Origin: Eledone cirrhosa
Taxonomy: Eukaryota
Assembly: GCA_964016885.1 (NCBI GenBank)
Contig: OZ024742.1
Span: 365,552,001 to 365,616,000 of the forward strand
Length of the DNA stretch: 64,000 bases
Direction: 5' to 3'
Shown here: piece by piece, positions 2,530-39,143 of the stretch
Layout: every line of letters starts with the position of its first letter
Numbering within the stretch: the stretch's first letter is position 1
Notes under the pieces: model-generated
Seen by the model: only the letters and a program-made list of their open reading frames with translations
Told to the model about the DNA's origin: nothing
Database searches by the model: none
Program-made: the position numbers and the translations under genes

Positions 2530-3007
2530 GTGTCAAAAGTTTAGACTTTCTAGAACCTGGTCACTAACAGAGGTTCAAGTCACGGGAGAGTGTTGACGGT
2601 GTCAAAAGTTTAGACTTTCTAGGACCTGGTCACTAACAGAGGTTCAAGTCACGGGAGAGTGTTGACGGTGTCAAAAGTTTAGACTTTCTAGAACCTGGCC
2701 ACTAACAGAGGTTCAAGTCACGGGAGAGTGTTGACGGTGTCAAAAGTTTAGACTTTCTAGAACCGGCCACTAACAGAGGTTCAAGTCACGGGAGAGTGTT
2801 GACGGTGTCAAAAGTTTAGACTTTCTAGAACCGGCCACTAACAGAGGTTCAAGTCACGGGAGAGTGTTGACGGTGTCAAAAGTTTAGACTTTCTAGAACC
2901 GGCCACTAACAGAGGTTCAAGTCACGGGAGAGTGTTGACGGTGTCAAAAGTTTAGACTTTCTAGAACCGGCCACTAACAGAGGTTCAAGTCACGGGAGAG
3001 TGTTGAC
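2530..3007. repeat. Minisatellite, 68-69 bp x7
   Basis: Unit GTGTCAAAAGTTTAGACTTTCTAGAAC...GAGAGTGTTGACG starts at 2530, 2599, 2668, 2737, 2805, 2873, 2941. Confidence 0.95.
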
Positions 3008-4431: not shown

Positions 4432-4436
<5 letters not shown>

Positions 4437-4938
4437 TTGCGAGGTTTTTTATATGAAATCGTGTCGAAACAAATATTGTTATACTTGGGGAGGGTCATAT
4501 TTGTGTAATATTGCCAGAATTAATAACAGAACACACTCACTGTTTGGTCGGTTTTCGCTTCTGTGTCTTTTATATCAGTTAATTTAATTTATTCGGTCCT
4601 CAATGTTGTCATTGACTGACCAACGGTCAAAAATACAGATACAATATAGACACGAACACATATATATAGTCTATCAAAGTTCTTTCGTTGCACATCTGCA
4701 ACATCGTCAGTGTTGCTATTATGTTTCCTCCCGTTGCATTGTATGCCTACGCCATCTTTATTTAGTCTGTTTATTTATTTGTTTACATTTTTGTCTTCTC
4801 TGCGCATGCGTTTGCGTGTGTGTATAGTGTTTTGTTTGATGTGTGTTCGTGTTTGGGTGACTGTGTATTGGTTAATGTATTCTATCTTAGTTCACTAGTG
4901 TGTGTTTACATGTTTTTGTTGTTATTGTGTATATGTAT

Positions 4939-4973
<35 letters not shown>

Positions 4974-5346
4974 TACTTCTCTTAGGTCAGTGTTGTTTGC
5001 TTGGGTGTTGTTGTTAATCCATTCATTTTTTCTGTATTTTTGACCGTTGGTCAGTGGATGGTACCATTGAGGATCGAATAAATTAAATTAACCGATATAA
5101 AAGACACATAAGCGAAAACCGACCAAACAGTGACTGTGTTCTGTTATTAATTCTGGCAATATTATTACACAAATATGACCCTCCCCATATATATATATAT
5201 AATATATAGACAGACTGAATAAAAATGGCGTAGACATACAATACAACAGGAGGAAAAGATAGCACCACTGACGATGTTGCAGATGTGCAACGAAAGATTT
5301 ATGATAAACTATATATATGTGTTTGTGTCTATATTTATCTGTATTA

Positions 5347-5350
<4 letters not shown>
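4432..5350. mobile_element. Family C non-coding fold-back element with HHR-like cores
   Basis: About 4483-4770 reappears inverted in two permuted blocks at about 5030-5190 and 5205-5350; flanked by (TA)n; second copy at 32018-32335. Confidence 0.8.
5263..5305 (+). ncRNA. Hammerhead-like core, family C (stem I degenerate)
   Basis: CTGACGA-T-GTTGCA(GATG)TGCAAC-GAAA; minus-strand copies at about 4674-4714 and 32219-32259. Confidence 0.6.
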
Positions 5351-5401
<51 letters not shown>

Positions 5402-5402
<1 letters not shown>

Positions 5403-5582
5403 AGTAGAAGGGATATTTAACTTGTTGGAAATCTAACAGATATAAATGTTTATAACTGATTCACAGAACTTGACAGATTTCAATGATACTAAATAAATAG
5501 AAACTATATTTATAAAACCATATTTATTCTTAATAAATATGCTTTTATAAATATGGTTCCATTTATTTTATATCATTTTATA
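5402..5582. mobile_element. Family D short (TA)n insert ending in an AT-rich hairpin
   Basis: Homologous to 51322-51500 (GTAGAAG..ATATTTAA..TGTTGG..TTTATAACTGAT); both end in a roughly 30-40 bp inverted repeat. Confidence 0.6.
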
Positions 5583-5922
5583 TTTATATATATATATAAC
5601 AAAAGGAGATTTCACGTTAAGGTCTTTACTGAATATTTTGGGTCAACTCCCACCGTGTGGCTATAAGGCTTGTGTTTTCTAATATAGCCTCGCCGTGATC
5701 AATGGTAATCGCTGGTGAGTGCATATATGTATATGTCCTGCATTAAGCGCCGAAACATCTTGATCTCGATTTTACAGCTGATGAAGGATTTCTTTTCTTC
5801 TCTTGTTTCGTCCATACAACCATCTTAAACTGTTTTTAAGTAACTACACAGCTACTTTCGTTTTTTATAATTTTATATATATATACATATATATATATAG
5901 AATGTATATATATATTTATAAA

Positions 5923-5992
<70 letters not shown>

Positions 5993-5995
<3 letters not shown>

Positions 5996-6730
5996 TATGT
6001 ACACGTACATACATATATGTATACAGACGTACAGTAGTATGTATATATATATACATACATGCACACATATATATATATGCACGTATGGATTCACCGAACA
6101 TTTATTATAAAGCTCGGTGTGCTTGTAAACAAACAAACATCCCGTATTAAGCCGTAGTGTCCAGCAACCATCGTTGCTCGTTTGTTCAACATTGACAAAG
6201 GGACGCTGTACTAGTTTCAAGCTTATTAGCTATCGTCAGCAACGTATACCTTCCTGCCAGATTGTTGAACGTATATACTTACTTTATGCATATTAACGGC
6301 TGAGTAGCCCAATTTGCATATCGAGTGGGTTAATCGGCCGGGTGCACCGAAAACGATAAACAGGAAAGATGAAACGAAATTTCATTTCCCACTCTTAGTA
6401 CGGCTGTTACTGGCAGGAAGGTATACGTTGCTGACGATAGCTAATAAGTTTGAAACTAGTACAGCGTTCCTTTGTCAGTGTTGAACAAACGAGCAACGAC
6501 GGTTGCTGGACACTACGGCTTAATACGGGATGTTTGTTTACAAGCACACCGAGCATTATAATAAATGTTCGGTGAATCTATACGTGCATATATATATGTG
6601 TGCATGTATGTATATATATATACACACTACTGTACGTCTGTATACATATATGTATGTACGTGTACATACTTATATTTAAGTAACAGCCGTACTAAGAGTG
6701 GGAAATGAAATTTCGTTTCATTTTTTCCGT
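5993..6730. mobile_element. Family E fold-back element with HHR in both arms
   Basis: 5993-6260 inverted at about 6410-6672; 6364-6410 inverted at about 6679-6722; (TA)n flanks; remnant at about 61535-61700. Confidence 0.85.
6425..6467 (+). ncRNA. Minimal type I hammerhead ribozyme (family E)
   Basis: ACGTTG-CTGACGA-T-AGCT(AATA)AGYT-T-GAAA-CTAG-TA-CAGCGT: 6-bp stem I, palindromic stem III, GUA site; mirror copy 6203-6245 (-). Confidence 0.85.
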
Positions 6731-6859
6731 TTATATATATATATAGAATATATATATATATATATATATATAAATATATGTTATATATATATATATATAA
6801 AAATATATAATATATATATATTATATAATTGTGTGTATATTCTTTTTATATATATTTTT

Positions 6860-8751: not shown

Positions 8752-9178
8752 TTAACCCTTTTCATAACAAAACGCTTCTGGTTCTACGAAAAAAATGTGT
8801 TTGGATTTTATTTTAAAGTGAATATATTTATCTAAAAAGTAAAAGATTTCCCATCAAATTTTCATGTAAGTGTTTAGGTTATGTTCCAAATGTCAGCTTA
8901 AAAATGAAAGGGCAGGTTAGTGTTATTAAATCTTCGAATTTTCGAATATTTTCTAAATCATTAGAAATATGGTGATGAAAATGTTAAAGTGTTTGTACTT
9001 ATTTAAAAGATTATCATATATTTATGTAACCTTTGTTAAGTAATGTTCCAAACACCGGAGTTATAATCGAATTCTTGTAGCATAGGTGAAAGGATAGACC
9101 AACACTTGATTAGTTTGAAAATCATTAAAAAATGATTGGCAGAGTGTTTTCTTAGAAATATGGTGTTGAAGAGTTAAT
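8752..9178. mobile_element. Degenerate piggyBac-like MITE
   Basis: TTAA-CCCTTTT...GAAGAG-TTAA ends; internal TTATGTTCCAAA motif also at about 49020 and 49745. Confidence 0.45.
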
Positions 9179-9202
9179 AGATTATATAATCAAATGATAT
9201 TG

Positions 9203-9430
9203 GTAGGGCAGAGTATTGGTAGTATCGCTAGAATGTCGGACAACATGCTTTATGGCATAGGGTTACACCCCTTTACGATCTGAGTTCAACTTCTGCCGAG
9301 GTTACCTTTGCCTTTCATCCTTATCGGATTAATAAATAAAGTACCAGTAATGCACTGGGGTTGATTTAATCGACTTCCCCCCCCCCCCTCCCAATAAATT
9401 GATGGTAGTGTGCCTAAATCAGAAACCAAT
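9203..9430 (+). mobile_element. tRNA-derived SINE
   Basis: A-box-like TGGTAGTATCG, B-box GAGTTCAACTTC, core GCCTTTCATCCTT...AAAGTACCAGTAATGCACTGGG. Confidence 0.8.
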
Positions 9431-9717
9431 ATTTATCCGTATATGTCTGAATATTTCTATCACGTAATTTACCGATTGAAATAAAGACATCGATAGAATA
9501 ATAAGTAAAAATGAATATAATCAATAGTGGAGTCGACATGATCAATAAATTGAAGGCCGCGCTCCAGCTGGTCACGAAGTGATCACTGAACACAATAAAA
9601 GGGGAAAAGAAAATGATATCATTAGTTTTTGTTGTGTTCACTTTTTCGCTATATTTCCCCTGTGATACGTTGATGAAATATGTGTTTCTTCTTAGCTGTA
9701 TAATCTGTGTAAAGCTG

Positions 9718-11798: not shown

Positions 11799-11868
<70 letters not shown>

Positions 11869-11871
<3 letters not shown>

Positions 11872-12951
11872 AGACGTAAGATAAGAAAATTATAAAATTA
11901 ACTTACTTACTAAAATATCACTTCCAACTAATTAGTTTCTGGAATGGAGTAGATACATCTTCCGAAGAAGGTGTAGAGAAACATCCCGTCATCAGGAAAG
12001 TCAATTCTCATATAAGTTCCAGGCAAAGCGAGGACACTGGAAGCTTATTAAAAATAAATCAGTGAATAGGAAATAGCAAAGCGTGGACTTACTTCCTAGC
12101 CATTGAGAAAATCACTGCCTCTGTGTCTGTGGCAAATTCAAAAATAATCGAACACGTGACAACGAGGTCAATCAGTGGAAAGTGGTTTGTTAATAAGACA
12201 GCGGCCTGCCTGCTACCATAGCAGCAGTCTTGGCCAATATTGCTCGACAAATAATTTGGAGATAATTATAAAGAATTAATATCTAGTAACATATATATAC
12301 ATACAGATGTATATCGATGCCAGCAAATATATATAGGTTTTGTCTTAATAACATTGTGGTTCAATGCATGGGGTTGCAAAACAATAATATAAGAGACGTA
12401 TGTATATATATGTTACTAGATATAAATTCTTTATTATTATCTCCAAAATATTTGTCGAGCAATACTGGCCATGACTGCTGCTACGGTAGCAGGCTAGCCG
12501 TTGTCTTATTAACAAACCACTTTCCACCGATTGACCTCGTTGTCACGTGTTCGATTCTTTTTGAATTTGCCACAGACACAGAGGCAGTGATTTTCTCAAT
12601 GGCTAGGAAGTAAGTCCACGCTTTGCTATTTCCTATTCACTGATTTATTTTTAATAAGCTTCCAGTGTCCTCGCTTTGCCTGGAACTTATATGAGAATTG
12701 ACTTTCCTGATGACGGGATGTTTCTCTACACCTTCTTCGGAAGATGTATCTACTCCATTCCAGAAACTAATTAGTTGGAAGTGATATTTTAGTAAGTAAG
12801 TTAATTTTATAATTTTCTTATCTTACGTCTCTTATATTATTGTTCTGCAACCCCATGCATTGAACCACAATGTTATTAAGACAAAACCTATATATTTGCT
12901 GGCATCGATATGCATTTGTATGTATATATATGTTACTAGATATAAATTCTT

Positions 12952-12955
<4 letters not shown>
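11869..12955. mobile_element. Family G retrozyme-like element (520-nt unit) with inverted arm
   Basis: Left arm 11869-12400 inverted; right body 12401-12955 has a terminal direct repeat (GTTACTAGATATAAATTC at 12412 and 12932); (TA)n on both sides. Confidence 0.9.
12701..12782 (+). ncRNA. Type I hammerhead with extended UUCG-capped stem II (family G)
   Basis: ACTTTC-CTGATGA-C-GGGATG..TACACCTTC(TTCG)GAAGATGTA..CATTCC-A-GAAA-CTAATTAG-TT-GGAAGT; mirror 11920-12001 (-). Confidence 0.85.
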
Positions 12956-13006
<51 letters not shown>

Positions 13007-13867: not shown

Positions 13868-15376
13868 TGTTGTCTTACAAAGTGACTTGATTCGAGGACG
13901 GCTATTATCTTACAAAGTGACTTGATCCGAGGATGAGTGTTGTCTTACAAAGTGACTTCATCCGAGGACGGCTGTTGTCTTACAAAGTGACTTGATCCGT
14001 GGACGGCTGTTGTCTTACAAAGTGACTTGATCCGTGGACGGCTATTATCTTACAAAGTGACTTGATCCGAGTATGAGTGTTGTCTTACAAAGTGACTTGA
14101 TCCGAGGACGGCTGCTGTCTTACAAAGTGACTTAATCCGAGGTCGGCTGCTGTCTTACAAAGTGACTTGCTCCGAGGACGGCTGTTGTCTTACAAAGTGA
14201 CTTGCTCCGAGGATGGCTGCTGTCTTACAAAGTGACTTGATCCGTGGACGGTTGTTGTCTTACAAAGTGACTTGATCCGTGGACGGCTGTTTTCTTACAA
14301 AGTGACTTGATCTGAGGATGGGTGTTGTCTTACAAAGTGACTTGATCCGAGGCCGGCTGCTGTCTTACAAAGTGACTTGATCCGAGGACGGCTGCTGTCT
14401 TACAAAGTGACTTGATCCGAGGACGGCTGTTGTCTTACAAAGTGACTTGATCCGTGGACGGCTGTTGTCTTACAAAGTGACTTGAACCGTGGACGGCTGT
14501 TGTCTTACAAAGTGACTTGACACGAGGACGGCTGCTGTCTTACAAAGTGACTTGATCCGAGGATGGGTGTTGTCTTACGAAGTTACTTGATCCGTGGACG
14601 GTTGTTGTCTTACAAAGTGACTTGATCCGAGGACGGCTGTTTTCTTACAAAGTGACTTGATCCGAGGATGGGTGTTGTCTTACAAAGTGACTTGATCCGT
14701 GGACGGCTATTATCTTACAAAGTGACTTGATCCGAGTATGAGTGTTGTCTTACAAAGTGACTTGATCCAAGGACGGCTGCTGTCTTACAAAGTGACTTAA
14801 TCCGAGGTCGGCTGCTGTCTTACAAGGTGACTTGATCCGAGGACGGCTGTTGTCTTACAAAGTGACTTGATCCGTGGATGGCTGTTGTCTTACAAAGTTA
14901 CTTGATCCGTGGACGGCTGTTGTCTTACAAAGTGACTTGATCCGTGGACGGCTGTTGTCTTACAAAGTGACTTGATCCGAGGACGGCTGTTTTCTTACAA
15001 AGTGACTTGATCCGAGGACGGCTGTTGTCTTACAAAGTGACTTGATCCGTGGATGGCTGTTGTCTTACAAAGTTACTTGATCCGTGGACGGCTGTTGTTT
15101 TACAAAGTGACTTGATCCGTGGACGGCTGTTGTCTTACAAAGTGACTTGATCCGAGGACGGCTGTTTTCTTACAAAGTGACTTGATCCGAGGATGGGTGT
15201 TGTCTTACAAACTGACTTGATCCGAGGACGGCTGTTGGCTTACAAAGTGACTTGATCCGAGGATGGCTGCTGTCTTACAAAGTGACTTGATCCGAGGATG
15301 GCTGTTGGCTTACAAAGTGACTTGATCCGAGGACGGCTGTTGTCTTACAAAGTGACTTGATCCGAGGATGGCTGTT
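13868..15376. repeat. Minisatellite 35 bp, about 43 copies
   Basis: Unit GTTGTCTTACAAAGTGACTTGATCCGAGGACGGCT; variation confined to a few positions. Confidence 0.95.
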
Positions 15377-15639
15377 GAAAATACAACAATTATGCTGTGG
15401 AAACTTCATCTCCGCCAGTCAATAAAATTTCCCAAAATTATTACAATTAGAGTTCGAGAAAAGAATGTTAACTGCAGGAAATAAATGTTGAATATAAAGT
15501 CAAGGTAGCATTCCTTGTGTTAATTGATATCACGGTGGATATATATGGTCGACAGGTGAGACACTTGTGGTAAGACAATTGGGAAAAATAGAAAAAGAGG
15601 AAAATGAAAGAAAAACTTGAGAGTGAGGTTCATTAATGC

Positions 15640-16355
15640 ATATATATATAGAGAGAGATACATATGTGTGTATATATATAGAGAGAGATGCGTATGTGTG
15701 TATATATATAGAGAGAGATACGTATGTGTGTATATATATAGTGAGAGAGATACGTATGTGTGTGTATATATATAAAGAGAGATACGTATGTGTGTGTATA
15801 TATATAAAGAGAGATACGTATGTGTGTATATATATAAAGAGAGATACGTATGTGTGTATATATATAGAGAGAGATACGTATGTGTGTATATATATAGAGA
15901 GAGATACGTATGTGTGTATATATATAGAGAGAGATACATATGTGTGTATATATATAGAGAGAGATACGTATGTGTATATATATAGTGAGAGAGATACGTA
16001 TGTGTGTGTATATATGGAGAGAGATACGTATGTGTGTATATACATAGAGAGAGATACGTATGTGTGTATATATATAGAGAGAGATACGTATGTGTATATA
16101 TATATAGAGAGATACGTATGCGTGTGTATATATATAAAGAGATACGTATGTGTGTATATATATAGAGAGAGATACGTATGCGTGTGTATATATATAAAGA
16201 GAGATACGTATGTGTATATATAGAGAGAGAGAGATACGTATGTGTGTATATATATAGAGAGAGATACGTATGCGTGTGTATATATATAAAGAGAGATACG
16301 TATGTGTGTATATACATAGAGAGAGATACGTATGTGTGTATATACATAGAGAGAT
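15640..16355. repeat. Compound minisatellite of about 26-30 bp
   Basis: GAGAGAGATACGTATGTGTGTATATATATA repeats. Confidence 0.9.
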
Positions 16356-18246: not shown

Positions 18247-18958
18247 AATACATTATCGGAGAAAGCTTTTAGCAATACTCCGGCCAAATTCCAACTCACT
18301 CAAGAAACATTAGGAAATAAGTGAGTATATTCCTAATTAAACGTTCGGGGTGCTAACTAAATGTATTGTGTGGAAAATTGGCTGTATTATTTCATATGAG
18401 ACATATCGAATATATCTATATATTTCAAGTTGTCAATGATGTAGTGATAATATATCGTCACGTTAGAGATGAACAGTGTACGTATAGGTTTGCTCAACGA
18501 GTATGAATTATATTCCGGAGAAAATGTAGAAAAGATGGATATAAAATGAAAGTGCTTTTATAAAGGAATTTATTAGGTATTGACATATGTTTCTGTAACA
18601 GACGGAATACCTATGTATCGCTGCTTGCGTAATCATATAATCTTAGCAAGTATTCGATAGCAAATATATAATCAGTTGTCACTTCTTCAGAGATATTGGA
18701 TAAATTGGAAAAAATCAGAAAAATTAAAGTATTTATATTAGTTGTAAGAAAGGAAGAAGAGAAGGGATAGTATATGACAGATGGCAATTCAATTTGCTGG
18801 TAAACAAGTATATAGAAGGTTTTTAATGAGAATACAATGAGTATATGGCTTATTTTATCTAAATAAGAATTTTTGGGAGTGCCTATTTTAATTTATAATT
18901 TGTGTTATAGATTAAAATAGGCACTATTTTAATCTATAATTTTTGGGAGTCCCTATGC

Positions 18959-20429
18959 TTTGATATAACTATGGGTTCCAATGATTCGGCGGAAGTAACT
19001 GATCTTGTGGGAATTTATAACACCCACAGACTACAAGGAAAATTCAAGGATCTCCACGGTGGACTCTACCGTGACGATGCGCTCCTATTAGTTAAGCATA
19101 TGAATAACCAAAATTTAGAAAGGATGCGTAAAAATATTAGAAAGCTTTTTAAGGAATTAGGATTAAATATTACGTTTGAATATAACCTCAAAGAGTGTTA
19201 CTTTGAATCTCAATAAAGAAACGAGTAAATCGTTCCATAAACTAAATGAGAACCTTAAATATGTAAATACGGGTTCTAACCATCCACCCTCTATAATTAA
19301 ATCCATCCCTAGAAATATTTCCCTTAGAATCTCCCGCCTGTCGTTCAACCAGAAAACCTTCAAAGAACATGCCGAATATTATGATGATGCACTTAGGAAG
19401 GCTGGACACCTAGATAATATAGAGTATATAGTCGACGATCACCAAAACACCCAAAATAAATCTCATAGAGGTAGAAATAGCATAGAATCACCGCCATACA
19501 TACACTACCGCAATACACACACTAATAGTCGCACACCACCAAATAGAAGGCGATGTAAAGAGTATATATTGTACAACCCGGTCTATAACAACTCTATTAA
19601 AACCAATCTACCCTCACAATTCTTTCGCTAATAGTCGCACGTCACCAAACAGAAGGCGATGTAAAGAGTATATATGGTACAACCCGGTCTATAACAACTC
19701 TATTAAAACCAATCTACCCTCACAATTCTTTAGATTAGTTACAAAACATTTTCCAACATCACATAAATATAATAAAACCTTAAACCCTAACACTATTCGA
19801 CTTTCATATTCAACCGCCCCTAATATTGAACAACATATAAAAAAGCTTAACGCAAAACGGTTGTATAAACGCCTTCCAACACATAACAATACACGTAAAA
19901 CATCGGCTATAACATCACAAAACAACAAACAACATCCCGTCCTGCCTAAGCAACCTCATCAATCCATCCATGGTAATACAACAACGCATAATTATAACTG
20001 TAACTGTGTCCAACCAGGAATGTGTCCGTGGAACAATCAGTGTCTTGAACGTAACATCATATACAAATGTACTATCGAATCGGGTAGCCAGAAGTGGTAC
20101 TATGTGGGGTCTACAGCTACCTTCTTCAAATCTCGCCTTTATAGACATCGTTACTCGATAAAACATGAAAACCAGCGTTATGTAACAACACTCGCAGACA
20201 AGGTTTGGCAGCTGCGCGAAAATAACCAACAATTTAACCTAAAATGGGTTATAATAGCGGTGCCCCTGCATATTTCCAAGGACAGGAATTTTGTAAATTG
20301 TGTAATATGGAAATATTTTGTATTATGAAATCCAAATTTTTTTTATTAAATAACAGAATAGAGCGATCGTTATACTGTAACCATCGCTTGAAATCTACAT
20401 TTTCATATTACAAACGCTACCAGGATTGA
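18959..20429 (+). pseudogene. Frameshifted RT plus GIY-YIG ORF of Naiad-like PLE 1
   Basis: ORF pieces 18971-19216, 19176-19631, 19861-20328, 20244-20429; internal duplication of about 107 bp at 19522-19733. Confidence 0.85.
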
Positions 20430-20898
20430 ACGCCTGTCTCCATCTCCGTTTGATTGTCAAAATACATATTAACATTCTCTATTAGTCTTAATTCTATCAA
20501 CTCTTCTATTCTTTACCATTTAATATAAACTGCTATAGATAAAATGAGATTTCTTAATTCAATTCCCTAATGCATATACCAGCAGGCTACCAACATTGTT
20601 GTTATACAGTAACAGTGAAAATCTCTCTCTTCCTTACTTGACACATTATATCTGTATTAATACTACTACACCAAACGACCAGCCCTGTCCATTGATCAAT
20701 TGGTCAAATATAGATTAAAATAGGCACTCCCAAAAATTATTATTTAGATAAAATAAGCCATATACTCATTGTAACCTTCTATATACTTGTTTACCAGCAA
20801 ATTGAATTGCCATCTGTCATATACTATCCCTTCTCTTCTTCCTTTCTTACAACTAATATAAATACTTAAATTTTTCTGATTTTTTCCAATTTATCCAA

Positions 20899-21016
20899 TA
20901 TCTCTGAAGAAGTGACAACTGATTATACATTTGCTAACGAATACTTGCTAACATTATATGATTACGCAAGCAGCGATACATAGGTATTCCGTCTGTTACA
21001 GAAACATATGTCAATA
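20899..21016 (+). ncRNA. Hammerhead with long stem II insert (Naiad 1 pLTR)
   Basis: CTGAAGA-A-GTGACA...TGTTAC-A-GAAA-CATATG-TC; weak stem I; mirror 18578-18695 (-). Confidence 0.65.
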
Positions 21017-21083
21017 CCTAATAAATTCCTTTATAAAAGCACTTTCATTTTATATTCATATTTTCTATATATATATATATATG

Positions 21084-21595
21084 GAGGAAGTTATAGTTCA
21101 CTTGAAGCATTGTGTAATGAGGTATAAGCGTTTGTATATGTATAATAAAGCCAAACCAATGCAGGTATGGACATAGAATAAAGAATGCAAATGCAAAAGA
21201 TATTGTTGACAATTAGTCTTTACCTTAGATTTATTTAAATGTCCTTAATTTTCGAGATAATATCTCTTCTTCGGAGGGAAGTAAAGCGGTTAAACCAGTG
21301 TTCTAAATAGCTTGCCAAGTCATGCAGACAGGGAATGGTATAGAGTATCTGTTCTATCTCTAATGTCAAAGAGTTAGGTTAGGTGGATAAAGAGTAGTCT
21401 CCCTTTAAAGGGTTTTTTTGTACATGCCTGTTTAAGTGTGTGGGAGAATGCAGGAAGGTGTAAGTATGTGAGTGTGTGTGTGTGAGTATGAGAAGATATG
21501 TCTATACGTAAATGTGGGGGATAGATGTTATCTCGTGTTAGAACTGGTCTTTGTGTGTGTATGTGTGTGTGTGAGAGAGAATAAGTGGAGGTGTA

Positions 21596-21644
<49 letters not shown>

Positions 21645-23340
21645 GTGTAAATATGGGGCTAGAAGCTCTATCAAGTTATTAATTGGGTGTTGAGTTCTAG
21701 TCTATTATTGATTGGTGGTTGTGTTTTATCTATAATTAGTGCTTCCTTAATTCTAAGATTGCCGAGGTTTCTTTCCTAACTGTTATGGTTTTGTCGGTGT
21801 TGTCGGTGTTTTGCATTTAACTAGGTGTTAAATGCAAACACACCGACAAAACCATAACAGTTAGGATAGAAACTAAGGAAAGAAACCTCGGCAATCTTAG
21901 AATTAAGGAAGCACTAATTATAGACAAAACACAACCACCAATCAATAATAGACTAGAACTCAACACCCAATTTATAACTTGCAGGTAACAGAGGAAGGGT
22001 AACAGAGGAAGGCAACATCCACGCCTGCTTCTATAAAAAAGCCGCCAGCAGAGACCTGTTCGTACATTTCAGATCGGCCCTCCCAGCCGGCGCTAACTTC
22101 GGATACATAAAGAACGAACTAACACGTATCCGGAACAAATGCACCGACGCTAGAGACCGAGACACACACACCACATATTTCCTGGAAGTACTCAAACTGA
22201 ACAGATACACGACATCCACCACAAACCGTGCCAGAAAGAACAGAGGACACCACACCCGAGGCACTAACACTTGCTTCCTGAAGCTCCCACACTTCAGTGA
22301 CGAAACAACAATAGCCATCCGCAGAGCTGTCAGACGAGAGGGACTAGATATCCAACTGGCCCACTCAGGTCCTTCTCTACGCGGACAGCTAACCAAAAGA
22401 CACTCCACCAGACATGAAAACTGCTGCAGGCTAGCCAACTGACCCACCAACAACACAGACCTATGCCACCAGGCTTACGTCGTATACAGACTAGAGTGTG
22501 ACAAATGCAGCAACTTCTACGTAGGTAGCACCACCAGACCACTCCACATAAGAATAAAAGAACACCTCAATACTAACGCTTCCTCATTTAAGAAACACCT
22601 AGTTAAATGCAAAAACACCGAAAAAACCATAACAGTTAGGATAGAAACTAAGGAAAGAAACCTCGGCAATCTTAGAATAAGGAAGCACTAATTATAGACA
22701 AAACACAACCACCAATCAATAATAGACTAGAACTCAACACCCAATTTATAACTGGATAGAGCTTCTAGTCCCATATTTACACACACACCCCACATACACA
22801 CGCACACACACACACACACACACGCACACACACACACACACACATACACACACATACACACACACGCTTACACCTCCACTTATTCTCTCTCACACACATA
22901 CATACACACACAAAGACCAGTTCTAACACGAGATAACATCTATCCCCCACATTTACGTATAGACATATCTTCTCACACTCACACACACACACTCACATAC
23001 TTACACCTTCATGCATTCTCCCACACACTTAAACAGGCATGTATAAAAAGAAACCCTTTTAAAGGGAGACTACTCTATCCACCTAACCAAACTCTTTGAC
23101 ATTAGAGATAGAACAGATACTCTATACCATTCCCTGTCAGCATGACTTGGCAAGCTATTTAGAACACTGGTTTAACCGCTTTACTTCCCTCCGAAGAAGA
23201 GATATTATCTCGAAAATTAAGGACATTTAAATAAATCCAAGGTAAAAGACTAATTGCCAACAATATCTTTTGCATTTGCATTCTTTATTCTATGTCTATA
23301 CCTGCATTGTTTTGGCTTTATTATACATATACAAACGTTT
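21084..23340 (+). mobile_element. Penelope-like element (Nematis-like, tentative) with inverted pLTR
   Basis: Frame from about 22020 reads FYKKAASRDLFVHFRSALP...VVYRLECDKCSNFYVGSTTRPLHIRIKEH...EALII; about 21125-21830 is inverted versus about 22595-23340. Confidence 0.82.
23188..23222 (+). ncRNA. Minimal hammerhead-like motif with CCGAAGA core
   Basis: CCT-CCGAAGA-A-GAGAT(ATT)ATCTC-GAAA-AT-TA-AGG; same core variant in mirror 21243-21277 (-). Confidence 0.55.
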
Positions 23341-23399
23341 GTATATATATATATATATGTATATACATATATATGCATATATATACATATGTACATATA

Positions 23400-24249: not shown

Positions 24250-24285
<36 letters not shown>

Positions 24286-24572
24286 ATAGAAGTGGATGGA
24301 TACTTCAACAGGTACAATGTACTTGTAGAAATATTCAAGTTGTTTATAATACATGTGGTTCAATGGCACTAATTCGAGATACCAGAACAATATAAAAGTA
24401 GCGAAACAAACGGTTATTAAACAATTTTCTAAATAAATTAAAAAATGATTAAATAATCACCTGTTCAGATGCTGTTACCGACGGTTTCATCATTCCGAAA
24501 GATTGGAAATCCAACGAATTTCCAATAGGGAGCATAATATTTACTTGCTATACCTTATAGCGTGGAAATAGG

Positions 24573-24653
24573 GCTGTCTGAAGATTCATTTCTTTCCATT
24601 GGAAATTCGTTGGATTTCCAATCTTTCGGAATGATGAAACCGTCGGTAACAGC
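24573..24653 (+). ncRNA. Type I hammerhead (family J, copy 1)
   Basis: GCTGT-CTGAAGA-T-TCATTTC..ATTGGAAATTC(GTT)GGATTTCCAAT..GGAATGA-T-GAAA-CCGTCGG-TA-ACAGC. Confidence 0.88.
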
Positions 24654-25029
24654 ATCTGAACAGGTGACTATTTAATCATTTTTTAATTTATTTAGAAAAT
24701 TGTTTAATAACCGTTTGTTTCGCTACTTTTATATTGTTCTGGTATCTCGAATTAGTGCCATTGAACCACATGTATTATAAACAACTTGAATATTTCTACA
24801 AGTACATTGTACCTGTTGAAGTATCCATCCACTTCTATAATTTATTCTCCTTACGTAGAGAACAAAACGTTGAATAATGCCGCTAATTTTAGTGACAATT
24901 CGACATGTTTATAATATCCAGCTTTTATCAGCGACCTGATTTGCGTGTGTGTCACTTTAACGGCTTGACCGCATGCGTTGGGCAGGGAGCATAATATTTA
25001 CTTGCTATACCTTATAGCGTGGAAATAGG

Positions 25030-25110
25030 GCTGTCTGAAGATTCATTTCTTTCCATTGGAAATTCGTTGGATTTCCAATCTTTCGGAATGATGAAACCGT
25101 CGGTAACAGC
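25030..25110 (+). ncRNA. Type I hammerhead (family J, copy 2)
   Basis: Identical motif 457 nt downstream of copy 1. Confidence 0.88.
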
Positions 25111-25182
25111 ATCTGAACAGGTGATTATTTAATCATTTTTTAATTTATTTAGAAAATTGTTTAATAACCGTTTGTTTCGCTA

Positions 25183-25237
<55 letters not shown>

Positions 25238-25422
25238 TACATGAATGAAAGTTCTGTTCAAATCATTTATTAGCTTACAATTGTAATACTATATATATAT
25301 ATATATATATATATACATGCACACACATACATACAAAATACACATGCGTACACAAAATTACATACACACATATATACACTCACATATATATATATATACA
25401 AATGTACATATATATATATACA

Positions 25423-26161
25423 AGTTAGCTAGATTGAAAAATACTAATTAGATTAATACAGTTTGCCTGTCTCGATTTAAAATAATAAATCAATAAAAAC
25501 AAACCCATATTGGCAATAGCCGTGATACCTGGACAAATTTAAATTTCAAAATCCAAACCTGTTCCGAAGACAAATTTAAATTTCAAAACCCAAATAAGTT
25601 TCGCAACGATAATTTAAAAAAGTGAAAAATGCCAATTCCTGTGGTCATCAACAGGTATCCAGAAATTAGCATGTTTCACCTCGAAATATTTTTGAAGGAC
25701 TGGTAATCAAATGCTAACGCACGTGGTTTCCCAGCTCCTAGCTAGCCCCATACTCATGCTGCTAGAAATAACAGCCTTCTATATGGGATTAAAATTTAGC
25801 TCAACAACAGGAGCCGTTAAATATTATATTTAGAGTTATAAACTCAAACAGTCTTTTACAATTAATTAGCTCAAAGAAAGAAGCATTTCTGAGCCGTGAA
25901 ATACAAGTTAATATAAATTAATATATGATAAACACCAATATGAACATATAAGTGTTTGCATTGTAAACGACCAAATTAGCTAGATTGAAAAATACTAACT
26001 AGATTAATACAGTTTGCCTGTCTCGATTTAAAATAATAAATCAATAAAAACAAACCCATATTGGCAATAGCTGTGATACCTAGACAAATTTAAATTTCAA
26101 AATCCAAACCTGTTCCGCAGACAAATTTAAATTTCAAAACCCAAATAAGTTTCGTAACGAT
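25423..26161 (-). mobile_element. Family L element, unit of about 550 nt (1.3 copies)
   Basis: About 25426-25610 repeated at about 25976-26160; diverged homolog at 32415-33165. Confidence 0.85.
25524..25659 (-). ncRNA. Atypical hammerhead with 30-bp stem III (family L1)
   Basis: GATACCTG-TTGATGA-...-GAAA-long G-U-rich hairpin capped by C(TTCG)G-TC-CAGGTATC. Confidence 0.7.
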
Positions 26162-26479
26162 CTGACCTCTAATATTTGTAATGTAACCTATATAAACCTT
26201 ATCAATTTATTTATTTATATTTTTTTAGCCGTTATTCACAGTTGTTTTTCATTTTTGACAGCGTTTCCCGATCAAAAATCTCTCTCTCTCCTTTCTTTTT
26301 CTCTCTCCTCCTTCCTTCTTAATTTTTTCCTCCGTTATTTTTTCTTTCTCTTTTATGTTTTTTCCTTTTCCCTCTTCCTTCTTTTTTTCCAATCTTCTCT
26401 CTCCTTTTATATTTTTTGTATGTTGACTGGATACTTTCTTGTTCACAAGTGTTTTAAGGCATCATATCACGTCACTTTA

Positions 26480-26547
26480 TTTTATCTGATGAGAACGCAA
26501 TTATCGTCCCAGGATGATATTTTATATTTGAAATGCGCATAATAAAA
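26480..26547 (+). ncRNA. Type I hammerhead (family M-related)
   Basis: TTTTAT-CTGATGA-...TATCGTC..GATGATA...-GAAA-TGCGCA-TA-ATAAAA. Confidence 0.7.
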
Positions 26548-26579
26548 CTTATGGAACTTTTTTAACCATGTTTGAATTT

Positions 26580-26623
<44 letters not shown>

Positions 26624-28532: not shown

Positions 28533-28539
<7 letters not shown>

Positions 28540-29341
28540 AGATCAAAAGATGGTTAAAGGAGTTCCATGTATTTTATTATGCGCATTTCAAAAACAAACA
28601 TCATCATGCAATAATATTTGTGTTTTCATCAGATAAAACAGGAGAACATGATATGAAGGCTAAAAAACACTTGTGGATAGTGCAGTTTTAAATCAACATA
28701 TGAAAAGTGGTTTTAGATTGATGTGTGATATTGGGAAAAATATTTTATTTAGAGAGGGGGGGGGGGGATGAAAAAGGGGAGGAGATGAGAGGGAGAGATG
28801 GGTGATAGAGATAGTTTTTATAACTGAGAGAAGATATATTGTTTTACATAGAGAGGTTGAAAACCGTTGGAAGGTAATGTATAAATTAAAAGAATTTGAA
28901 AATTAACGAAGGGAAGATATGTACGAGGAAAAAATATTTTATTTAGGGAGGGAGGGGGTGGAAAGGATGAAAAAAGGGGGAGGAGATGAGAGTGAAGGTG
29001 GAGAGGGAGAGATGGGTGATAGAGAGAAAGAGATAGTTTTTATAACTGAGAAAAGATATATTGTTTTACATAGAGAGGTTGAGAACCGTTGGAAGATAAT
29101 GTATAAATTAAAAGAATTTGAAAATTAACGAAGGGAATTTATGTATGAAGATAGAGAGAAAAAATAATAATTGTGGATGAATATTCTAACGTCAAAAAAA
29201 GTGTATGTTGATAAGTATTGTGGCAATTTCAAAATTAACGAAGAGAAAAAATTATTAAGGTTTGTGTGTAGAAGGATTTGAGAAAAATAATGTGAAGTTA
29301 AAGTTTGTATATTGAAGGAATTGATAATATGTGCGAATAAA

Positions 29342-29345: not shown

Positions 29346-29421
<76 letters not shown>

Positions 29422-29560
29422 TTAGGTTTGTTGGTTCACCACTGGATAGAACTGGTCATTCCGTATTGTCAATCCTGGTGTAGTATTGTGAAGAGTACTC
29501 AACGCAGTACAGTTCACCCGCCTTCGTTTGTGTAGTTGGTGGTGCGAATACGGAGTTAAT

Positions 29561-29894
29561 TATAAATGAAATAACAGGAGGCTGAACTGGTGTAAATCCT
29601 TGAAAGGTTTATTATACTATGATCATTTCAATGACCGGGTTCCATATGAATCCGGTGATATCATCAGGTATTTTAATATAACAAAGGAATATGTAAAAAG
29701 CCATGGGTCCGAAAATTCAGCCGCCCTCTCTGTCTCTGATTTTTCGGACCCATGGCTTTTTACATATTCCTTTTTTATATTCCAATACCTGATGATATCA
29801 CCGGATTCATATGGAACCCGGTCATTGAAATGATCATAGTATAATAAACCTTTCAAGGATTTAAACCAGTCTAGCCTCCTGTTATTTCATTTAT
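29561..29894. mobile_element. Family N near-perfect palindrome (arms of about 155 bp)
   Basis: The two strands give nearly the same ORF (29600+ and 29623-); short central spacer. Confidence 0.9.
29785..29842 (+). ncRNA. Type I hammerhead (family N)
   Basis: ATAC-CTGATGA-TAT-C-ACCGG...CCGGT-C-ATT-GAAA-TGATCA-TA-GTAT; mirror 29614-29671 (-). Confidence 0.85.
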
Positions 29895-29965
29895 ATATAT
29901 ATATATGTGTGTGTTTGTGTGTGTATGTACATATATGTATATGTATATATATATTTATATATATG

Positions 29966-30052
<87 letters not shown>

Positions 30053-30060
<8 letters not shown>

Positions 30061-30829
30061 CGTAAAATAAGAAAATTATAAAATTAACTTACTTACTAAA
30101 ATATCACTTCCAACTAATTAGTTTCTGGAATGGAGTAAATATATTTTCCGAAGAAGATATAGAGAATATAATTTTCTTGTTTTACGTCTCTCATATTATT
30201 GTTCTGCAACCCCATGCATTGAACCACAATGTTACTAAGACAAAACCTATATATTTGATAGCATTGATATGCATCTGTATGTATATATATGTTACTAGAT
30301 ATTAATTCTTTATAATTATCTCCAAATTATTTGTCGAGCAATATTGGCCATGACTGCTGCTATGGTAGCAGGCAGGCCGCTGTCTTATTAGCAAACCACT
30401 TTCCACTGATTGACCTCGATGTTACGTGATTGATTCTTTTTGAATTCGCCACCGACGCAGAGGCAGTGATTTTCTCAATGGCTAGGAATTCAGTCCACGC
30501 TTTGCTATTTCCTATCCACTGAATTATTTTTTAATAAGTTTCCAGAGTCCTCGCTTTGCCTGGAAACTTAGCTGAGAATAGACTTCCCTGACGACGGAAT
30601 GTTTCTCTATATCTTCTTCGGAAAATATATTTACTCCATTCCAGAAACTAATTAGTTGGAAGTGATATTTTAGTAAGTAAGTTAATTTTATAATTTTCTT
30701 ATTTTACGTCTCTCATATTATTGTTCTGCAACCCCATGCATTGAACCACAATGTTACTAAGACAAAACCTATATATTTGCTAGCATTGATATGCATCTGT
30801 ATGTATATATATGTTACTAGATATTAATT

Positions 30830-30833
<4 letters not shown>
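30053..30833 (+). mobile_element. Family G second copy (522-nt unit, HHR 30582-30663)
   Basis: Inverted arm 30053-30166; TACGTCTCTCATATT at 30183 and 30705; ACTTCC-CTGACGA...GAAA-CTAATTAG-TT-GGAAGT. Confidence 0.9.
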
Positions 30834-30885
<52 letters not shown>

Positions 30886-30889
<4 letters not shown>

Positions 30890-31453
30890 ATTAGAATTGG
30901 CGCTCTGAAATAGCTATATATATATATGAATGTATATATAGTGTACTTTGCAATACACTGTATGCTTAATTAAAAGCATTTCGAAGACCTAATGCTATTG
31001 TTTTAGAATAGTGACAGTCCAACTTACTTTAAATTTTCAGCAAACTGAAAATTTAAAGTAAGTGAGACTGTCACTACTCTAAAACAATAGCATAAGGTCT
31101 TCGAAATGCACTATATATAGACTATATATACATTCATATATATATAGCTATTTCAGAGCACAACTTCTAATTTTCAATTTCTGCTTGACCGGCAACCACT
31201 CTGTATAATCAGTCCCTGATTATTACTAGAAATTCTATAAGAATCAAACATTCATGATTTTCAGCAAACAGGTGGAGTACTTGGCTTTGAGAAGTACCAA
31301 TCAGTACGAAACAGAGCTTTGTCAGCTTTATCTTCCCTGTTTGCTGAAAATGTAAAATAAGTGAGTCTGTCACTACTCTAAAACAATAGCATAAGGTCTT
31401 CGAAATGCTTTTAATTAAGCGTACAGTGTATTGCAAAATACACTATATATACA

Positions 31454-31460
<7 letters not shown>
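30886..31460 (+). mobile_element. Family O retrozyme-like element (unit of about 300-320 nt) with fold-back
   Basis: Hairpin centred near 31042; direct repeat about 31045-31110 and 31345-31410; homolog 47958-48378 (-). Confidence 0.85.
31283..31327 (+). ncRNA. Hammerhead, U3-A8 core variant (family O)
   Basis: GGCT-TTGAGAA-GTAC(CAATCA)GTAC-GAAA-CAGAGCTTTG-TC-AGCT. Confidence 0.75.
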
Positions 31461-31942: not shown

Positions 31943-32006
<64 letters not shown>

Positions 32007-32017
32007 CATATATATAT

Positions 32018-32331
32018 ACTTGGGGAGGGTCATATTTGTGTAATATTGCCAGAATTAATAACAGAACACACTCACCGTTTGGTTGGTTTTCGCTTCTCGC
32101 TTCTGTGTCTTTTATATCGGTAATCTAACTTACTCGGTCCTCAATGTTGCCATTGACTGACCGACGGTTAAAAATAATACAGATACTATATAGACACAAA
32201 CACATATATATAGTTTATCTTAAATCTTTCGTTGCACATCTGCAACATCGTCAGTGGTGCTATCTTTTCCTCCTGTTGTATTGTATGTCTACGCCATTTT
32301 ATACTGTATATTTTATACTACGCCATATATA

Positions 32332-32335
<4 letters not shown>
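32018..32335 (-). mobile_element. Family C second copy
   Basis: High identity to 4483-4760; embedded in (TA)n. Confidence 0.85.
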
Positions 32336-32414: not shown

Positions 32415-32417
<3 letters not shown>

Positions 32418-33165
32418 TAAAATATATGATAAACACAAAACATGTTTGCATTGCAACAGACAAAGTTAGCTATTAATGAAATAAACTAATTAAAGTGAAT
32501 ACAATTTGTCTGTCTCGATATAAGTCAATAAAGACAAGCTTATATTGGCAACGGCCATGATTCCTGGACAGATTTAAATTTCAAAATCCAAACCTGTTCC
32601 GTAGACAAATTTGAACCTCGAAACCTAAATCCGTTTCGGTGGTATGTGAATTGAAAAATAAAGAGAATCGAAATGGAATTGAAATAAAAAGTGAAATATC
32701 CAAATCTACTGTGCTTATCAACAGGAATCCAGTAAAATTAGTACATCTCACATCAAAAATTCTGCAGGTCTGACTACACGTGTGTAGCCAGGCCAAACTA
32801 GCCGTTCCGCATTCCCGGTGCTAGAAATAACAGCCGTTTATGCGGGATTAAAGATCAGCTCTACAGTTAAGGAGCAATATACTATATTATATTTTGAGAA
32901 TAAACCCTCAGTCGTTTACAATAATAAAGCTCCAAGAAAAGGGGCATTTCCGAGCAGTTAAATACATTAAAATATATGATAAACACAAAACGTGTTTGCA
33001 TTGCAACAGACAAAGTTAGCAATTAATGAAATAAACTAATTAAAGTGAATACAATTTGTCTGTCTCGATATATTTTAATGTATTTAACTGCTCGGAAATG
33101 CCCCTTTTCTTGGAGCTTTATTATTGTAAACGACTGAGAGTTTATTCTCAAAATATAATATAGTA
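32415..33165 (-). mobile_element. Family L second copy (550-nt unit plus inverted arm; HHR 32559-32729)
   Basis: ACATTAAAATATATG at about 32415 and 32964; 33070-33165 inverted versus about 32878-32975; GATTCCTG-TTGATAA...GAAA-30-bp stem C(TACG)G-TC-CAGGAATC. Confidence 0.85.
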
Positions 33166-33189: not shown

Positions 33190-33267
<78 letters not shown>

Positions 33268-33280
33268 ACATATATATATA

Positions 33281-33450
33281 ACAAAGGTGTGGTAAGATAC
33301 CAGGTGGATCATAACGCACCTGAGTAATCGATACTTAGGGTAGTAGAGTGGGTAATAGAGAAAAGAGTCAGGACCCCAACCGCTGAGCTCTGGCTTAATT
33401 CAGAACTAGCTGTCGAAAGGGCCGGAGCTCAGTGGTCGGGGTCCTGGCAT
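33281..33450 (-). mobile_element. Family A fold-back copy
   Basis: Family A tail reversed, plus hairpin CAGGACCCC...GGGGTCCTG. Confidence 0.75.
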
Positions 33451-33584
33451 GTTAGTTTAACGATCAGGATATTCCGTTGTTTTACAAACTGGAACCCTCA
33501 TCAATGCAACTGACGGAGGACCATATGATTTCATTTAGAATCTTAAATCTTTGGCTTCATATATCATTATAATTAATGGTTTAT

Positions 33585-33995
33585 AATTTAGGCACAAGGC
33601 CAACAATTTTTGGAGTAGAGGAAAGTTTATTAAAACGACCCAGTGCATTACTGTTACTTTATTCTATCGACCCTCTAATGATGAAAGGCAAAGCTAACCT
33701 CTGTGAGATTTGAAATAAGAACACAAACGGCTGTAACTAAGCTGCGAAGCTCGGTGTCCGACGCTTTACAGATACTGCCAATCCAATACCGTTATAATTA
33801 ATTGTTTCTACTTTAGGCACAAGGCCAGCAATTACCCAGTGCATTACTGGTACTTTTATTTTATCGACCCCGTAAGGATGAAAGGCAAAGTCAACCACGG
33901 CGGGATTTGAACTCAGATCGTAAAGGGACGTAACTATGCTGGAAAGCATGGCGTCCGAACCTCTACCGATACTGCCAATCCAATACCGTTATAAT
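33585..33995 (-). mobile_element. Two tandem tRNA-SINE copies
   Basis: GGATGAAAGGCAAAGTCAACCACGGCGGGATTTGAACTCAG and a diverged upstream partner. Confidence 0.8.
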
Positions 33996-34637
33996 TAATG
34001 GAACCTGAACAGCTTTCCTGTTTTACTGGTTCCAGCCACTTCACAATTAATATTACATTTTAATATTTATTATTTTAGTGATGTCTGCTTTTGTTGATCT
34101 GAGACCTTGCCGGGGCAAGATATTCAAGGGTTTTGTGTTGATCACATCGACCGCAGTACGTGTTTCTTTTTAAATATATATTTACCATTTACTATTTCTG
34201 ATTTATAATAGTTCAAGTGGTTAAAATTATCTTTTCAAGACATAATCTGTTGTTTGAACTGGTAGTGTTTTGTCCAACATATAAGATGAAAATCAGAAAC
34301 ATAAATAAATCAAAAATACACTCATTGGTGTCGTACTAAATCCATTAGTATTTCAAAACCTTCATCATCATATCTACCGAATAAAAGGTTAGCAGTCACA
34401 TGTTGTATTGTTGTTTTTTTGTTGTAACAACGAACCAAGGAAATGGAGAAAACGAAGAGTTCTTAAAATGATAATGAACTTAGGACGTCAATTGTTCTAA
34501 AGTAAACAAAGGATGTATTGGGAAATATAGAAAAATGGAGAAAATCTTTAGAAGGAAAGATTAAAGTGGAACAACACATCAATGTCTTCGATACAACGTG
34601 TGAAAATAAATGTTGTTCTCATTTACACACCTCTCTC

Positions 34638-35031
<394 letters not shown>

Positions 35032-35533
35032 TACACGGGTGTGCATGAGTGTGTATAGAAGATTATATTAATAAGAGGAATTCCAACTTTGTCTGATTTA
35101 ATCGTTTTATTTACAATCCTTTAAAATTTATAATGGTATTAGAATGAAATAGTATGATAGAATATTAAATTCTAAGTGTTAATTGAACAAGTACTTTCAT
35201 GCTTTCGCAATCTTCAGGTTCATAATATGTGGTGACAGTCAAGTTTGCAATTTTCAACTGTAATGAGATGGGTAAATTTTGTACATTATATACAGTGAAA
35301 AGTGGTTCTAGAATGCTAAATCTTGCAAACTGTATTTCGACCAATCGGTGTGTAGTTTCACTGAATTACTAAAGCTGATTGGTTTAAGCGTCACGGCTGG
35401 TTGAGCATGTCTAACGACCAATAATTAATCCTATCCAAAGCATCAATTGTTTTGCTATTTTTAGAAATGATGAAAATAGCATTTTCTAGTAATCATCACC
35501 ATCAACATCACTTTTATTATTATTATTATTATT

Positions 35534-35567
<34 letters not shown>

Positions 35568-35648
35568 TGTTGTTGTTGTTAGTGGTTGTAGTCGACATGG
35601 ATATAGTCATAGACATAGTCATATTAGAAGTAATACCCCTAAGCGTTA

Positions 35649-38941: not shown

Positions 38942-38980
38942 TGAACCTGAAGATTGCGAAAGCATGAAAGTACTTGTTCA
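38942..38980 (+). ncRNA. Minimal type I hammerhead (Neptune pLTR)
   Basis: TGAAC-CTGAAGA-T-TGC(GAAA)GCA-T-GAAA-GTAC-TT-GTTCA; mirror 35184-35222 (-). Confidence 0.85.
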
Positions 38981-39092
38981 ATTAACACTTAGAATTTAAT
39001 ATTCTATCATACTATTTCATTCTAATACCATTGTAAATTTTAAAGGATTGTAAATAAAACGAGTAAATCAGACAAAGTTGGAATTCCTCTTA

Positions 39093-39143
<51 letters not shown>

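Follow-up and report, generated by a model that had tools for sequence, protein, structure and literature searches.

What kind of insertion leaves two copies of a permuted 520-nt repeat unit with the same two ends, each lying inside the unit and each abutting a (TA)n tract? The question is raised by a repeat family (family G) found in a 64,000-nt stretch of Eledone cirrhosa DNA (GenBank assembly GCA_964016885.1, contig OZ024742.1, positions 365,552,001 to 365,616,000 of the forward strand), which is the whole sequence analysed here and is referred to as the window; all coordinates below are window positions. A preliminary description of these copies proposed that reverse transcription is primed internally by pairing of the cut (TA)n target with UA-rich sites in the RNA, and that this pairing both fixes the termini and directs the element to microsatellites. 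The analysis presented below leaves us highly confident that family G is a hammerhead element mobilised by a Penelope-like element (PLE), and it assigns TA pairing a narrower part in the process than had been proposed.

The window contains two copies of family G, A (11869-12955) and B (30054-30833), and no third, so that n=2 for this family. The direct repeat has a period of 520 nt in copy A and of 522 nt in B; units are numbered such that position 1 is window position 12436 and position 520 is 12955. In both copies an inverted, 5'-truncated arm stands next to a sense body:

11801-11868: pure (TA)n tract left of copy A
11869-12400, minus strand: copy A inverted arm, 532 nt or 1.02 units (unit 389-520, then 1-402), ending at the short terminus
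12398-12955, plus strand: copy A sense body, 558 nt or 1.07 units (unit 483-520, then 1-520)
12833-12837, plus strand: internal copy of the short terminus in copy A, with 5-nt TA microhomology
12838-12955, plus strand: copy A tail between the two termini, 118 nt, predicted double hairpin
12956-13002: pure (TA)n tract right of copy A
29892-30053: TA/TG tract left of copy B, compound and partly degenerate, pure TA beside the element, adjoining a PLE-type insertion at 29420-29891
30054-30166, minus strand: copy B inverted arm, 113 nt (unit 287-402), containing just the 3' part of the hammerhead described below
30167-30833, plus strand: copy B sense body, 667 nt or 1.28 units (unit 373-520, then 1-520), period 522
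30718-30833, plus strand: copy B tail, 116 nt
30834-30885: pure (TA)n tract right of copy B, adjoining a PLE-type insertion at 30885-31456

Both inverted arms end at about unit 398-402 (the short terminus) and both sense bodies at about unit 515-519 (the long terminus, around 518). The permuted 520/522-nt unit, the inverted arm and the two common ends in (TA)n that had been described are therefore confirmed in both copies, as is the claim that both termini are internal positions, since the sequence runs on past each of them elsewhere in the same locus. In copy A an extra T separates the motif quoted for the long end from the TA run, so that this end is fixed only to within about 3 nt. The body forms a partial tandem, or pLTR-like direct repeat, of 38 nt in copy A and 145 nt in copy B, and a tail extension of 116-118 nt is present at a single end of both copies. 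All four junctions lie in (TA)n. Counting bodies and inverted arms together, three of the four arms are longer than one unit, and each of the four crosses the predicted hammerhead cleavage site once and none twice. The inversion junction of copy A (12398-12400) has 3 nt of microhomology, while that of copy B has none.

The two loci represent independent insertions. Their unique flanks gave no BLAST match in any of the four pairings, and their arm lengths and inversion junctions differ. Repeats within each locus are nearly identical (0/113 differences between the arms and 2/145 between the direct copies of B; 0/263 between the arms of A over unit 136-402), whereas A and B differ from each other at 21 of 267 sites over unit 136-402. 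The same evidence speaks against one insertion having been duplicated together with its flanks, an outcome that the preliminary description had named as fatal to its proposal.

A feature that escaped the preliminary description is a type I hammerhead motif in the family G unit, 60 nt upstream of the first end, which is present at three places in the two copies:

12701-12782, plus strand: type I hammerhead motif in the copy A body, predicted cleavage after 12776
11920-12001, minus strand: type I hammerhead motif in the copy A inverted arm, predicted cleavage after 11926
30582-30663, plus strand: type I hammerhead motif in the copy B body, predicted cleavage after 30657

The motif fits a descriptor of our own (core CUGANGA / GAAA / NUH with helices I-III), which has 17 matches in the window, 3 of them in family G, compared with a mean of 0.2 and a maximum of 2 in 30 simulated windows. 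It combines a 6-bp stem I, a stem II, also of 6 bp, whose base carries a 1x1 mismatch, a palindromic stem III and a GUU cleavage triplet, and it has an unpaired base after A9 and a long helix II; for helix III a self-duplex of 12 pairs (-13 kcal/mol) is predicted. Helix II does not close directly on G12, as an extra base precedes GAAA in all three family G copies, a feature shared with the hammerhead of an autonomous PLE at 38942. Equivalently, helix II is closed by the 1x1 mismatch, and we file the motif as a variant; an axolotl retrozyme hammerhead has a U.U mismatch at the helix II closing position (PMC7229834). A comparison of copies A and B finds 44 of 46 pair cells intact and a single double-sided change, and the difference in the core lies at N7, a free position; the pair-count control gave 234 of 500 shuffles, a comparison of only two sequences and so of no statistical power. 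Searches of Rfam with the unit alone returned four matches, none of them a hammerhead and all of chance miRNA type, and no hammerhead family was among the 150 of 215 whole-window matches listed. Likewise, a 29-nt hammerhead pattern had no match in a prokaryotic genome collection. The hammerhead is the minimum-energy fold in one of the three family G copies and is no stabler than shuffled sequences (z-scores -0.03 to -0.78). The unit folded as a circle is predicted to be well paired (z -3.7 and -4.3). Self-cleavage is predicted from the motif.

The unit is non-coding, with a GC content of 36% and one type I hammerhead per unit. It has no conserved ORF (the longest from a Met are 87 aa in A and 27 aa in B), and tblastn of family G against 7 ORFs of the window and 120 homologues gave no convincing match (best E 0.037). 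We therefore reject the idea that family G is an autonomous EN+ PLE, which would have an ORF with RT and GIY-YIG domains. We also reject an active retrozyme array, since the arms hold one motif at most and not two tandem complete units.

The surroundings of the two copies bear on their identity. The window is AT-rich, contains numerous palindromic repeats and satellites as well as 68 (TA)n tracts, and includes a decayed autonomous element:

34969-39095, minus strand: decayed autonomous PLE with RT and GIY-YIG domains and a CX4CxxC linker, its ORF interrupted by a stop

Pfam recognises RVT_1 (E 5e-5) and GIY-YIG (E 7e-6) in this element, the linker is of the Neptune/Nematis type (PMC8557442), and the best homologues of the protein are 62-63% identical, the named ones coming from bivalve molluscs or their symbiont assemblies. 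The inverted arm of this element measures about 810 nt and its tail about 35-40 nt; it has hammerheads at 35184 and 38942, and the helix II base mismatch of family G recurs in the one at 38942. No autonomous partner that shares sequence with family G, pLTR included, was found in the 64-kb window, and this PLE serves as supporting context, not as an established partner. About a dozen other families of the window also have an arm and an extra end segment between TA tracts. The fact that many families, including a PLE with RT and GIY-YIG, have the same anatomy as family G supports its PLE identity, a point that had likewise been overlooked.

Several of these neighbours deserve mention in their own right. 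Three more regions contain broken PLE-like ORFs (57176-59054, plus strand; 18529-21065; 21083-23341); the Pfam GIY-YIG match is confined to the first, inverted arms occur in the second and third, and the first and second are about 67% identical in DNA. A family with a 550/551-nt unit (32415-33163 and 25421-26161, the latter on the minus strand) may carry a variant hammerhead core, with U3-A8 in one copy and U3-G8 in the other, which resembles the U3-A8 variant described in PMC4209133. Five copies of a short family (1287-1373, 33264-33446, 46974-47138, 51993-52181 and 61312-61464) have the same long end in (TA)n and are apparently truncated inside a hammerhead-like stem, and three copies of a hammerhead family with an AUA triplet (26413-26581, 28535-28706 and 52223-52631) share a short end that lies 45 nt beyond the predicted site of cleavage. 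Another hammerhead family (5994-6731 and 61516-61703) has a unit of about 420 nt, an inverted arm, a 58-nt tail and TA microhomology of 5 and 3 nt. Single hammerhead-like motifs lie at 47505-47550, 48520-48574, 56747-56825 and 59568-59679 and have no partner copy in the window, while in a related repeat at 4434-5350 and 32003-32334 inverted pieces are rearranged around a short TA run. Copy B itself is the middle one of three PLE-type insertions placed end to end at 29420-31456 (29420-29891, copy B and 30885-31456) with TA tracts alone between them, which suggests that each insertion leaves targets for the next.

The remaining repeats are of other kinds. A dispersed family of about 200 nt, 70-95% identical and SINE-like (9106-9436, 33559-33999, 34709-34925, 40033-40238, 41605-41809 and 49191-49725), may resemble an octopus SINE. 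At 46045-46960, 115-nt inverted terminal repeats surround an HTH transposase fragment in a mariner-like arrangement. Homogeneous minisatellites occupy 2530-3007 (period 68), 13868-15377 (35), 15641-16354 (30), 42315-44029 (78) and 50427-50852 (34).

One neighbouring family is of direct relevance to the tail of family G:

24283-25186, plus strand: family H, period 457, hammerheads at 24573 and 25030, inverted arm with a 110-nt tail

The tail of family H is homologous to that of family G (p 0.002, the floor of 500 shuffles), while the bodies show no similarity (p 0.47) and are not alignable. Both ends of family H fall at places that match the ends of family G, with the long end shifted by a few nt, and the tail lies in the inverted arm in family H and in the body in family G. 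When folded as single sequences and read by eye, the G and H tails each show two predicted hairpins with the termini at both flanks, and the first hairpin has the same GUUC/GAAC closing stem in both with a changed upper stem; an alignment-based fold of the two tails gave no pairs, and the MAFFT alignment of G with H was out of register. Among nine other families whose tails were compared with that of family G, only H matched.

Taken together, the anatomy of family G is that of a known class. Standard PLE insertions combine partial tandems with an inverted 5' copy and, at one end, a tail of 30-40 bp, and they favour (TA)n; non-autonomous PLEs are also known (PMC8557442). The purified Poseidon protein of Anolis, PAc, cuts both strands of AT-rich DNA and starts reverse transcription at two internal sites downstream of the hammerhead, the spacing of which equals the tail, with uncleaved RNA as the template (Frangieh et al. 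2024, PMC11167929). Since a pair of fixed internal ends with a tail between them has been published as the signature of PLEs, and internal starts have been observed in vitro, family G is a non-autonomous PLE passenger close to non-LTR retrozymes, and neither an autonomous PLE nor an active tandem array. Its ends are likely to be start sites of reverse transcription, and the element as a whole is best described as a non-coding, non-autonomous, hammerhead-bearing retroelement that very probably relied on a (TA)n-targeting PLE, whose RT-GIY-YIG protein would have copied it in trans.

To what extent does TA pairing account for these ends? The four junctions of family G have TA microhomologies of 5, 4, 3 and 4 nt (p about 0.02 for family G alone, two sites). 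Across the window, 11 of 19 family end-sites have at least 3 nt, compared with 2.8 expected from the local sequence within 110 nt (p 2e-5), and without families G and H the figures are 8 of 15 and 2.2 (p 4e-4). These counts are based on hand-picked junctions: 21 junctions were condensed to 17 sites, each represented by its lowest value, and the total of 19 includes two further sites from the 30885 family, whose values were read off by eye, with sums capped at 6. The count leaves out the family at 4434-5350 and 32003-32334 (orientation unclear), long ends lacking an internal continuation (7 families), the diverged copy 5396-5584, and extra copies at 46950, 57123, 61516 and 28026. We found no report of microhomology at PLE ends in the open-access literature.

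While the homology is real, it does not select the ends. The longest TA runs of the unit, at 454-460 (7 nt) and 488-496 (9 nt), both lie inside the tail and are not used as ends, so that a simple rule by which the best TA site wins is rejected. In the RNA, these two runs are predicted to be mostly paired (unpaired probability 0.23-0.43, compared with 0.44-0.87 at the sites that are used). However, accessibility is not a sufficient cause either, as the TA-like sites at unit 373-376 and 13-16 are predicted to be open and are nevertheless unused. In addition, 8 of the 19 end-sites have only 0-2 nt of TA homology. Ends are common to five copies of one other family and to three of another, while the two copies of the 550/551-nt family (25421 and 32415) end about 50 nt apart. 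The original proposal of priming by pairing therefore stands in part: both the anatomy and the in vitro work (PMC11167929) favour internal initiation at a fixed pair of sites, and a short homology to (TA)n exists. Because the longest runs and other accessible sites are unused and 8 of 19 sites have less than 3 nt, TA pairing cannot account for the fixed ends or for the choice of microsatellite targets; the target bias has been attributed to the endonuclease and linker (PMC8557442), and PAc primes without homology. The reading we prefer is one in which the two sites are chosen by protein and RNA structure and their register is set by short pairing, and we lean slightly towards the microhomology acting at the priming step.

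Alternative origins of TA-like ends were weighed against the reading of the ends as reverse transcription start sites. The ends could be made in DNA, if the GIY-YIG endonuclease cut a multimeric cDNA at TA-like sites and the products joined the cut (TA)n, so that the microhomology would reflect nuclease specificity and not RNA priming. This process would likewise yield TA-like ends, and a source of the tail in endonuclease-mediated resolution of an intermediate has been suggested (PMC8557442). We regard it as unlikely, given that the 9-nt and 7-nt TA runs should be the best sites in double-stranded DNA and are unused, that their predicted pairing is a property of the RNA, and that tail ends in vitro are start sites of reverse transcription (PMC11167929).

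Much the same homology would arise if the element made or lengthened its own flanking (TA)n, through stuttering of a telomerase-related RT on a UAU/UAUA start site before elongation. PLE RTs are indeed sister to telomerase (PMC8557442), and the tracts at all four family G junctions are pure TA and in phase with the internal motif; yet the degenerate compound tract beside copy B seems to predate the insertion, and end-sites with 0-2 nt of homology also have TA tracts, which makes this explanation very unlikely. Somewhat less probable again is trimming after insertion by deletion or slippage between (TA)n and the nearest internal TA-like site. Trimming would produce microhomology with no homology at priming, and the few-nt shift of the long end between families G and H would fit it, but the copies are young, as the differences within copy B (0/113 and 2/145) indicate, the two ends are found again in independent insertions as well as in family H, and the longer TA runs, which lie nearer the long end, were not reached. 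Finally, long palindromes like those of family G, for which centre deletion and conversion are known, could in principle come from one duplicated insertion with a partly lost centre and arm-to-arm conversion, or from a DNA fold-back or MITE-type element, but we give these the least credence of all, as the flanks are unrelated, identity within loci is far above that between loci (direct repeats included), the ends are different unit positions (402 and about 518) rather than terminal inverted repeats, and an RNA template is indicated by the hammerhead motif together with permuted arms longer than the unit.

If the ends are start sites, it may be asked whether the two arms of an insertion were copied from one template. 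Copy A is informative in this respect, as its inverted arm is a mosaic:

12174-12306, minus strand: patch of the copy A inverted arm (unit 481-93) that matches copy B and not A's own body

Within the patch the arm agrees with copy B at 9 of 10 informative sites, while all 29 informative sites outside it agree with A's body (circular runs test, p 3e-5). The two copies of unit 483-520 in the body of A are identical (0/38 differences), and because the body variants are present in both, they predate the insertion. Given the mosaic and the age of these variants, the two arms of copy A were not copied from one stretch of RNA; at this one locus, they derive from different template variants. Three sources can be considered: two RNAs, successive units in a multimer of mixed composition, or a patch converted at a later time by a B-like donor. 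The successive-unit option is raised by the position of the arm end, 80 nt upstream of the body start, which is the geometry of twin priming. In L1 twin priming, an inverted 5' segment results from a second priming event, whose site varies in L1 and is fixed in family G. For the two-RNA option, it is of note that the anole PLE protein is predicted to be a dimer (PMC11167929). The arm of copy B overlaps the start of its body by 30 nt and gives no information on template number.

These observations lend themselves to a stepwise model. The template would be a longer-than-unit RNA, either a tandem multimer or a circle, as three of four arms exceed the unit and all four cross the cleavage site. A PLE protein would bind the structured region just 3' of the hammerhead, a role suggested by the predicted double hairpin that family G shares with family H, and, by analogy with PLE biochemistry, its endonuclease would nick both strands of a (TA)n tract. 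Reverse transcription would then start internally at one or other of two fixed sites, some 60 and 178 nt beyond the cleavage site, between which the hairpins lie, with 3-5 nt of UA pairing to the nicked primer possibly setting the register; the sites and the homology are seen in the DNA. One nick would give rise to the sense body and the other to the inverted arm, in an order that the anatomy alone does not dictate, and the two 5'-truncated cDNAs would be joined head to head. In copy A, the mosaic suggests that the two cDNAs came from different template variants. More tentatively, and with less than even confidence in the combination, we propose that (TA)n-targeting PLEs prime in a manner different from PAc, with a conserved double-hairpin tail placing the RT at two sites, 3-5 nt of UA pairing, and arms drawn from different template units, which might be two RNAs bound by a dimeric protein or consecutive units within a single multimer.

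The origin of the inverted arms and tails of PLEs and the reason for their preference for microsatellites are recognised as open questions (PMC8557442). Only one PLE has been reconstituted so far, and family G makes such questions testable by genome data and a 520-nt RNA: it is short, young and ORF-less, has two fixed ends and a measurable microhomology, and carries variants that mark the template of each arm. The two fixed internal ends themselves are already published as the PLE tail signature (PMC8557442, PMC11167929). What goes beyond the published descriptions found in open-access text is the 116-118-nt tail with its predicted structure, the TA microhomology and the two-template arm, and the family may already be catalogued. 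Neither twin priming or template switching in PLEs nor cephalopod retrozymes were the subject of any report found in that literature.

Comparison with known systems places family G between two groups of elements. It resembles the EN+ PLEs (Penelope/Poseidon, Neptune and Naiad; PMC8557442, PMC4209133) in its partial tandem, inverted 5'-truncated arm, one-end tail and (TA)n bias, and their hammerheads (PMC4209133) in the long helix II, the unpaired base after A9 and the palindromic helix III. In contrast to these elements, family G has no RT or GIY-YIG ORF, its tail measures 116-118 nt instead of 30-40, and an extra unpaired base precedes G12. The PAc start site is an AC-rich stem-loop that has no homology to the cut DNA in the published account (PMC11167929), whereas the ends of family G have 3-5 nt of TA homology and lie in (TA)n. 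Chlamys MRC1 and Chlamys-N4 (PMC8557442, PMC9977147) are likewise non-autonomous passengers of PLEs that carry pLTRs, form head-to-tail copies and target microsatellites; unlike family G, they are algal, mostly described as lacking hammerheads, inserted in (CA)n or (C)n, and provided with recognised autonomous partners. The EN-minus Athena and Coprina elements share with family G a homology-assisted attachment beside a hammerhead, but Athena uses telomeric overhangs and has no nuclease (PMC8557442).

The second group is that of the animal non-LTR retrozymes, hammerhead-bearing non-coding repeats (Cervera and de la Pena 2020, PMC7229834). Like family G, they have a non-coding, low-GC unit of a few hundred nt, one type I hammerhead per unit, longer-than-unit copies, a circular form predicted to be well paired, and PLEs in the same genome. 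The 520-nt unit of family G is above the 150-450 bp given for them in PMC7229834 but within the 51-972 bp of a more recent survey (Li, Clavereau and Pollet 2026, bioRxiv 10.64898/2026.07.22.740005). While retrozymes form tandem arrays, family G consists of dispersed arms of 1.0-1.3 units with an inverted arm and a tail; that survey calls a retrozyme active if it has at least 2 consecutive tandem units with complete hammerheads, and family G resembles its monomer class. The same authors argue that retrozymes are PLE derivatives on the basis of co-occurrence and pLTR similarity and, in the text available, not of insertion ends. Family G links retrozyme-type RNAs to PLE proteins through insertion anatomy, and if the tentative combined reading given above is true, such loci would provide direct evidence, from their anatomy, for the insertion of retrozyme-type RNAs by PLE proteins.
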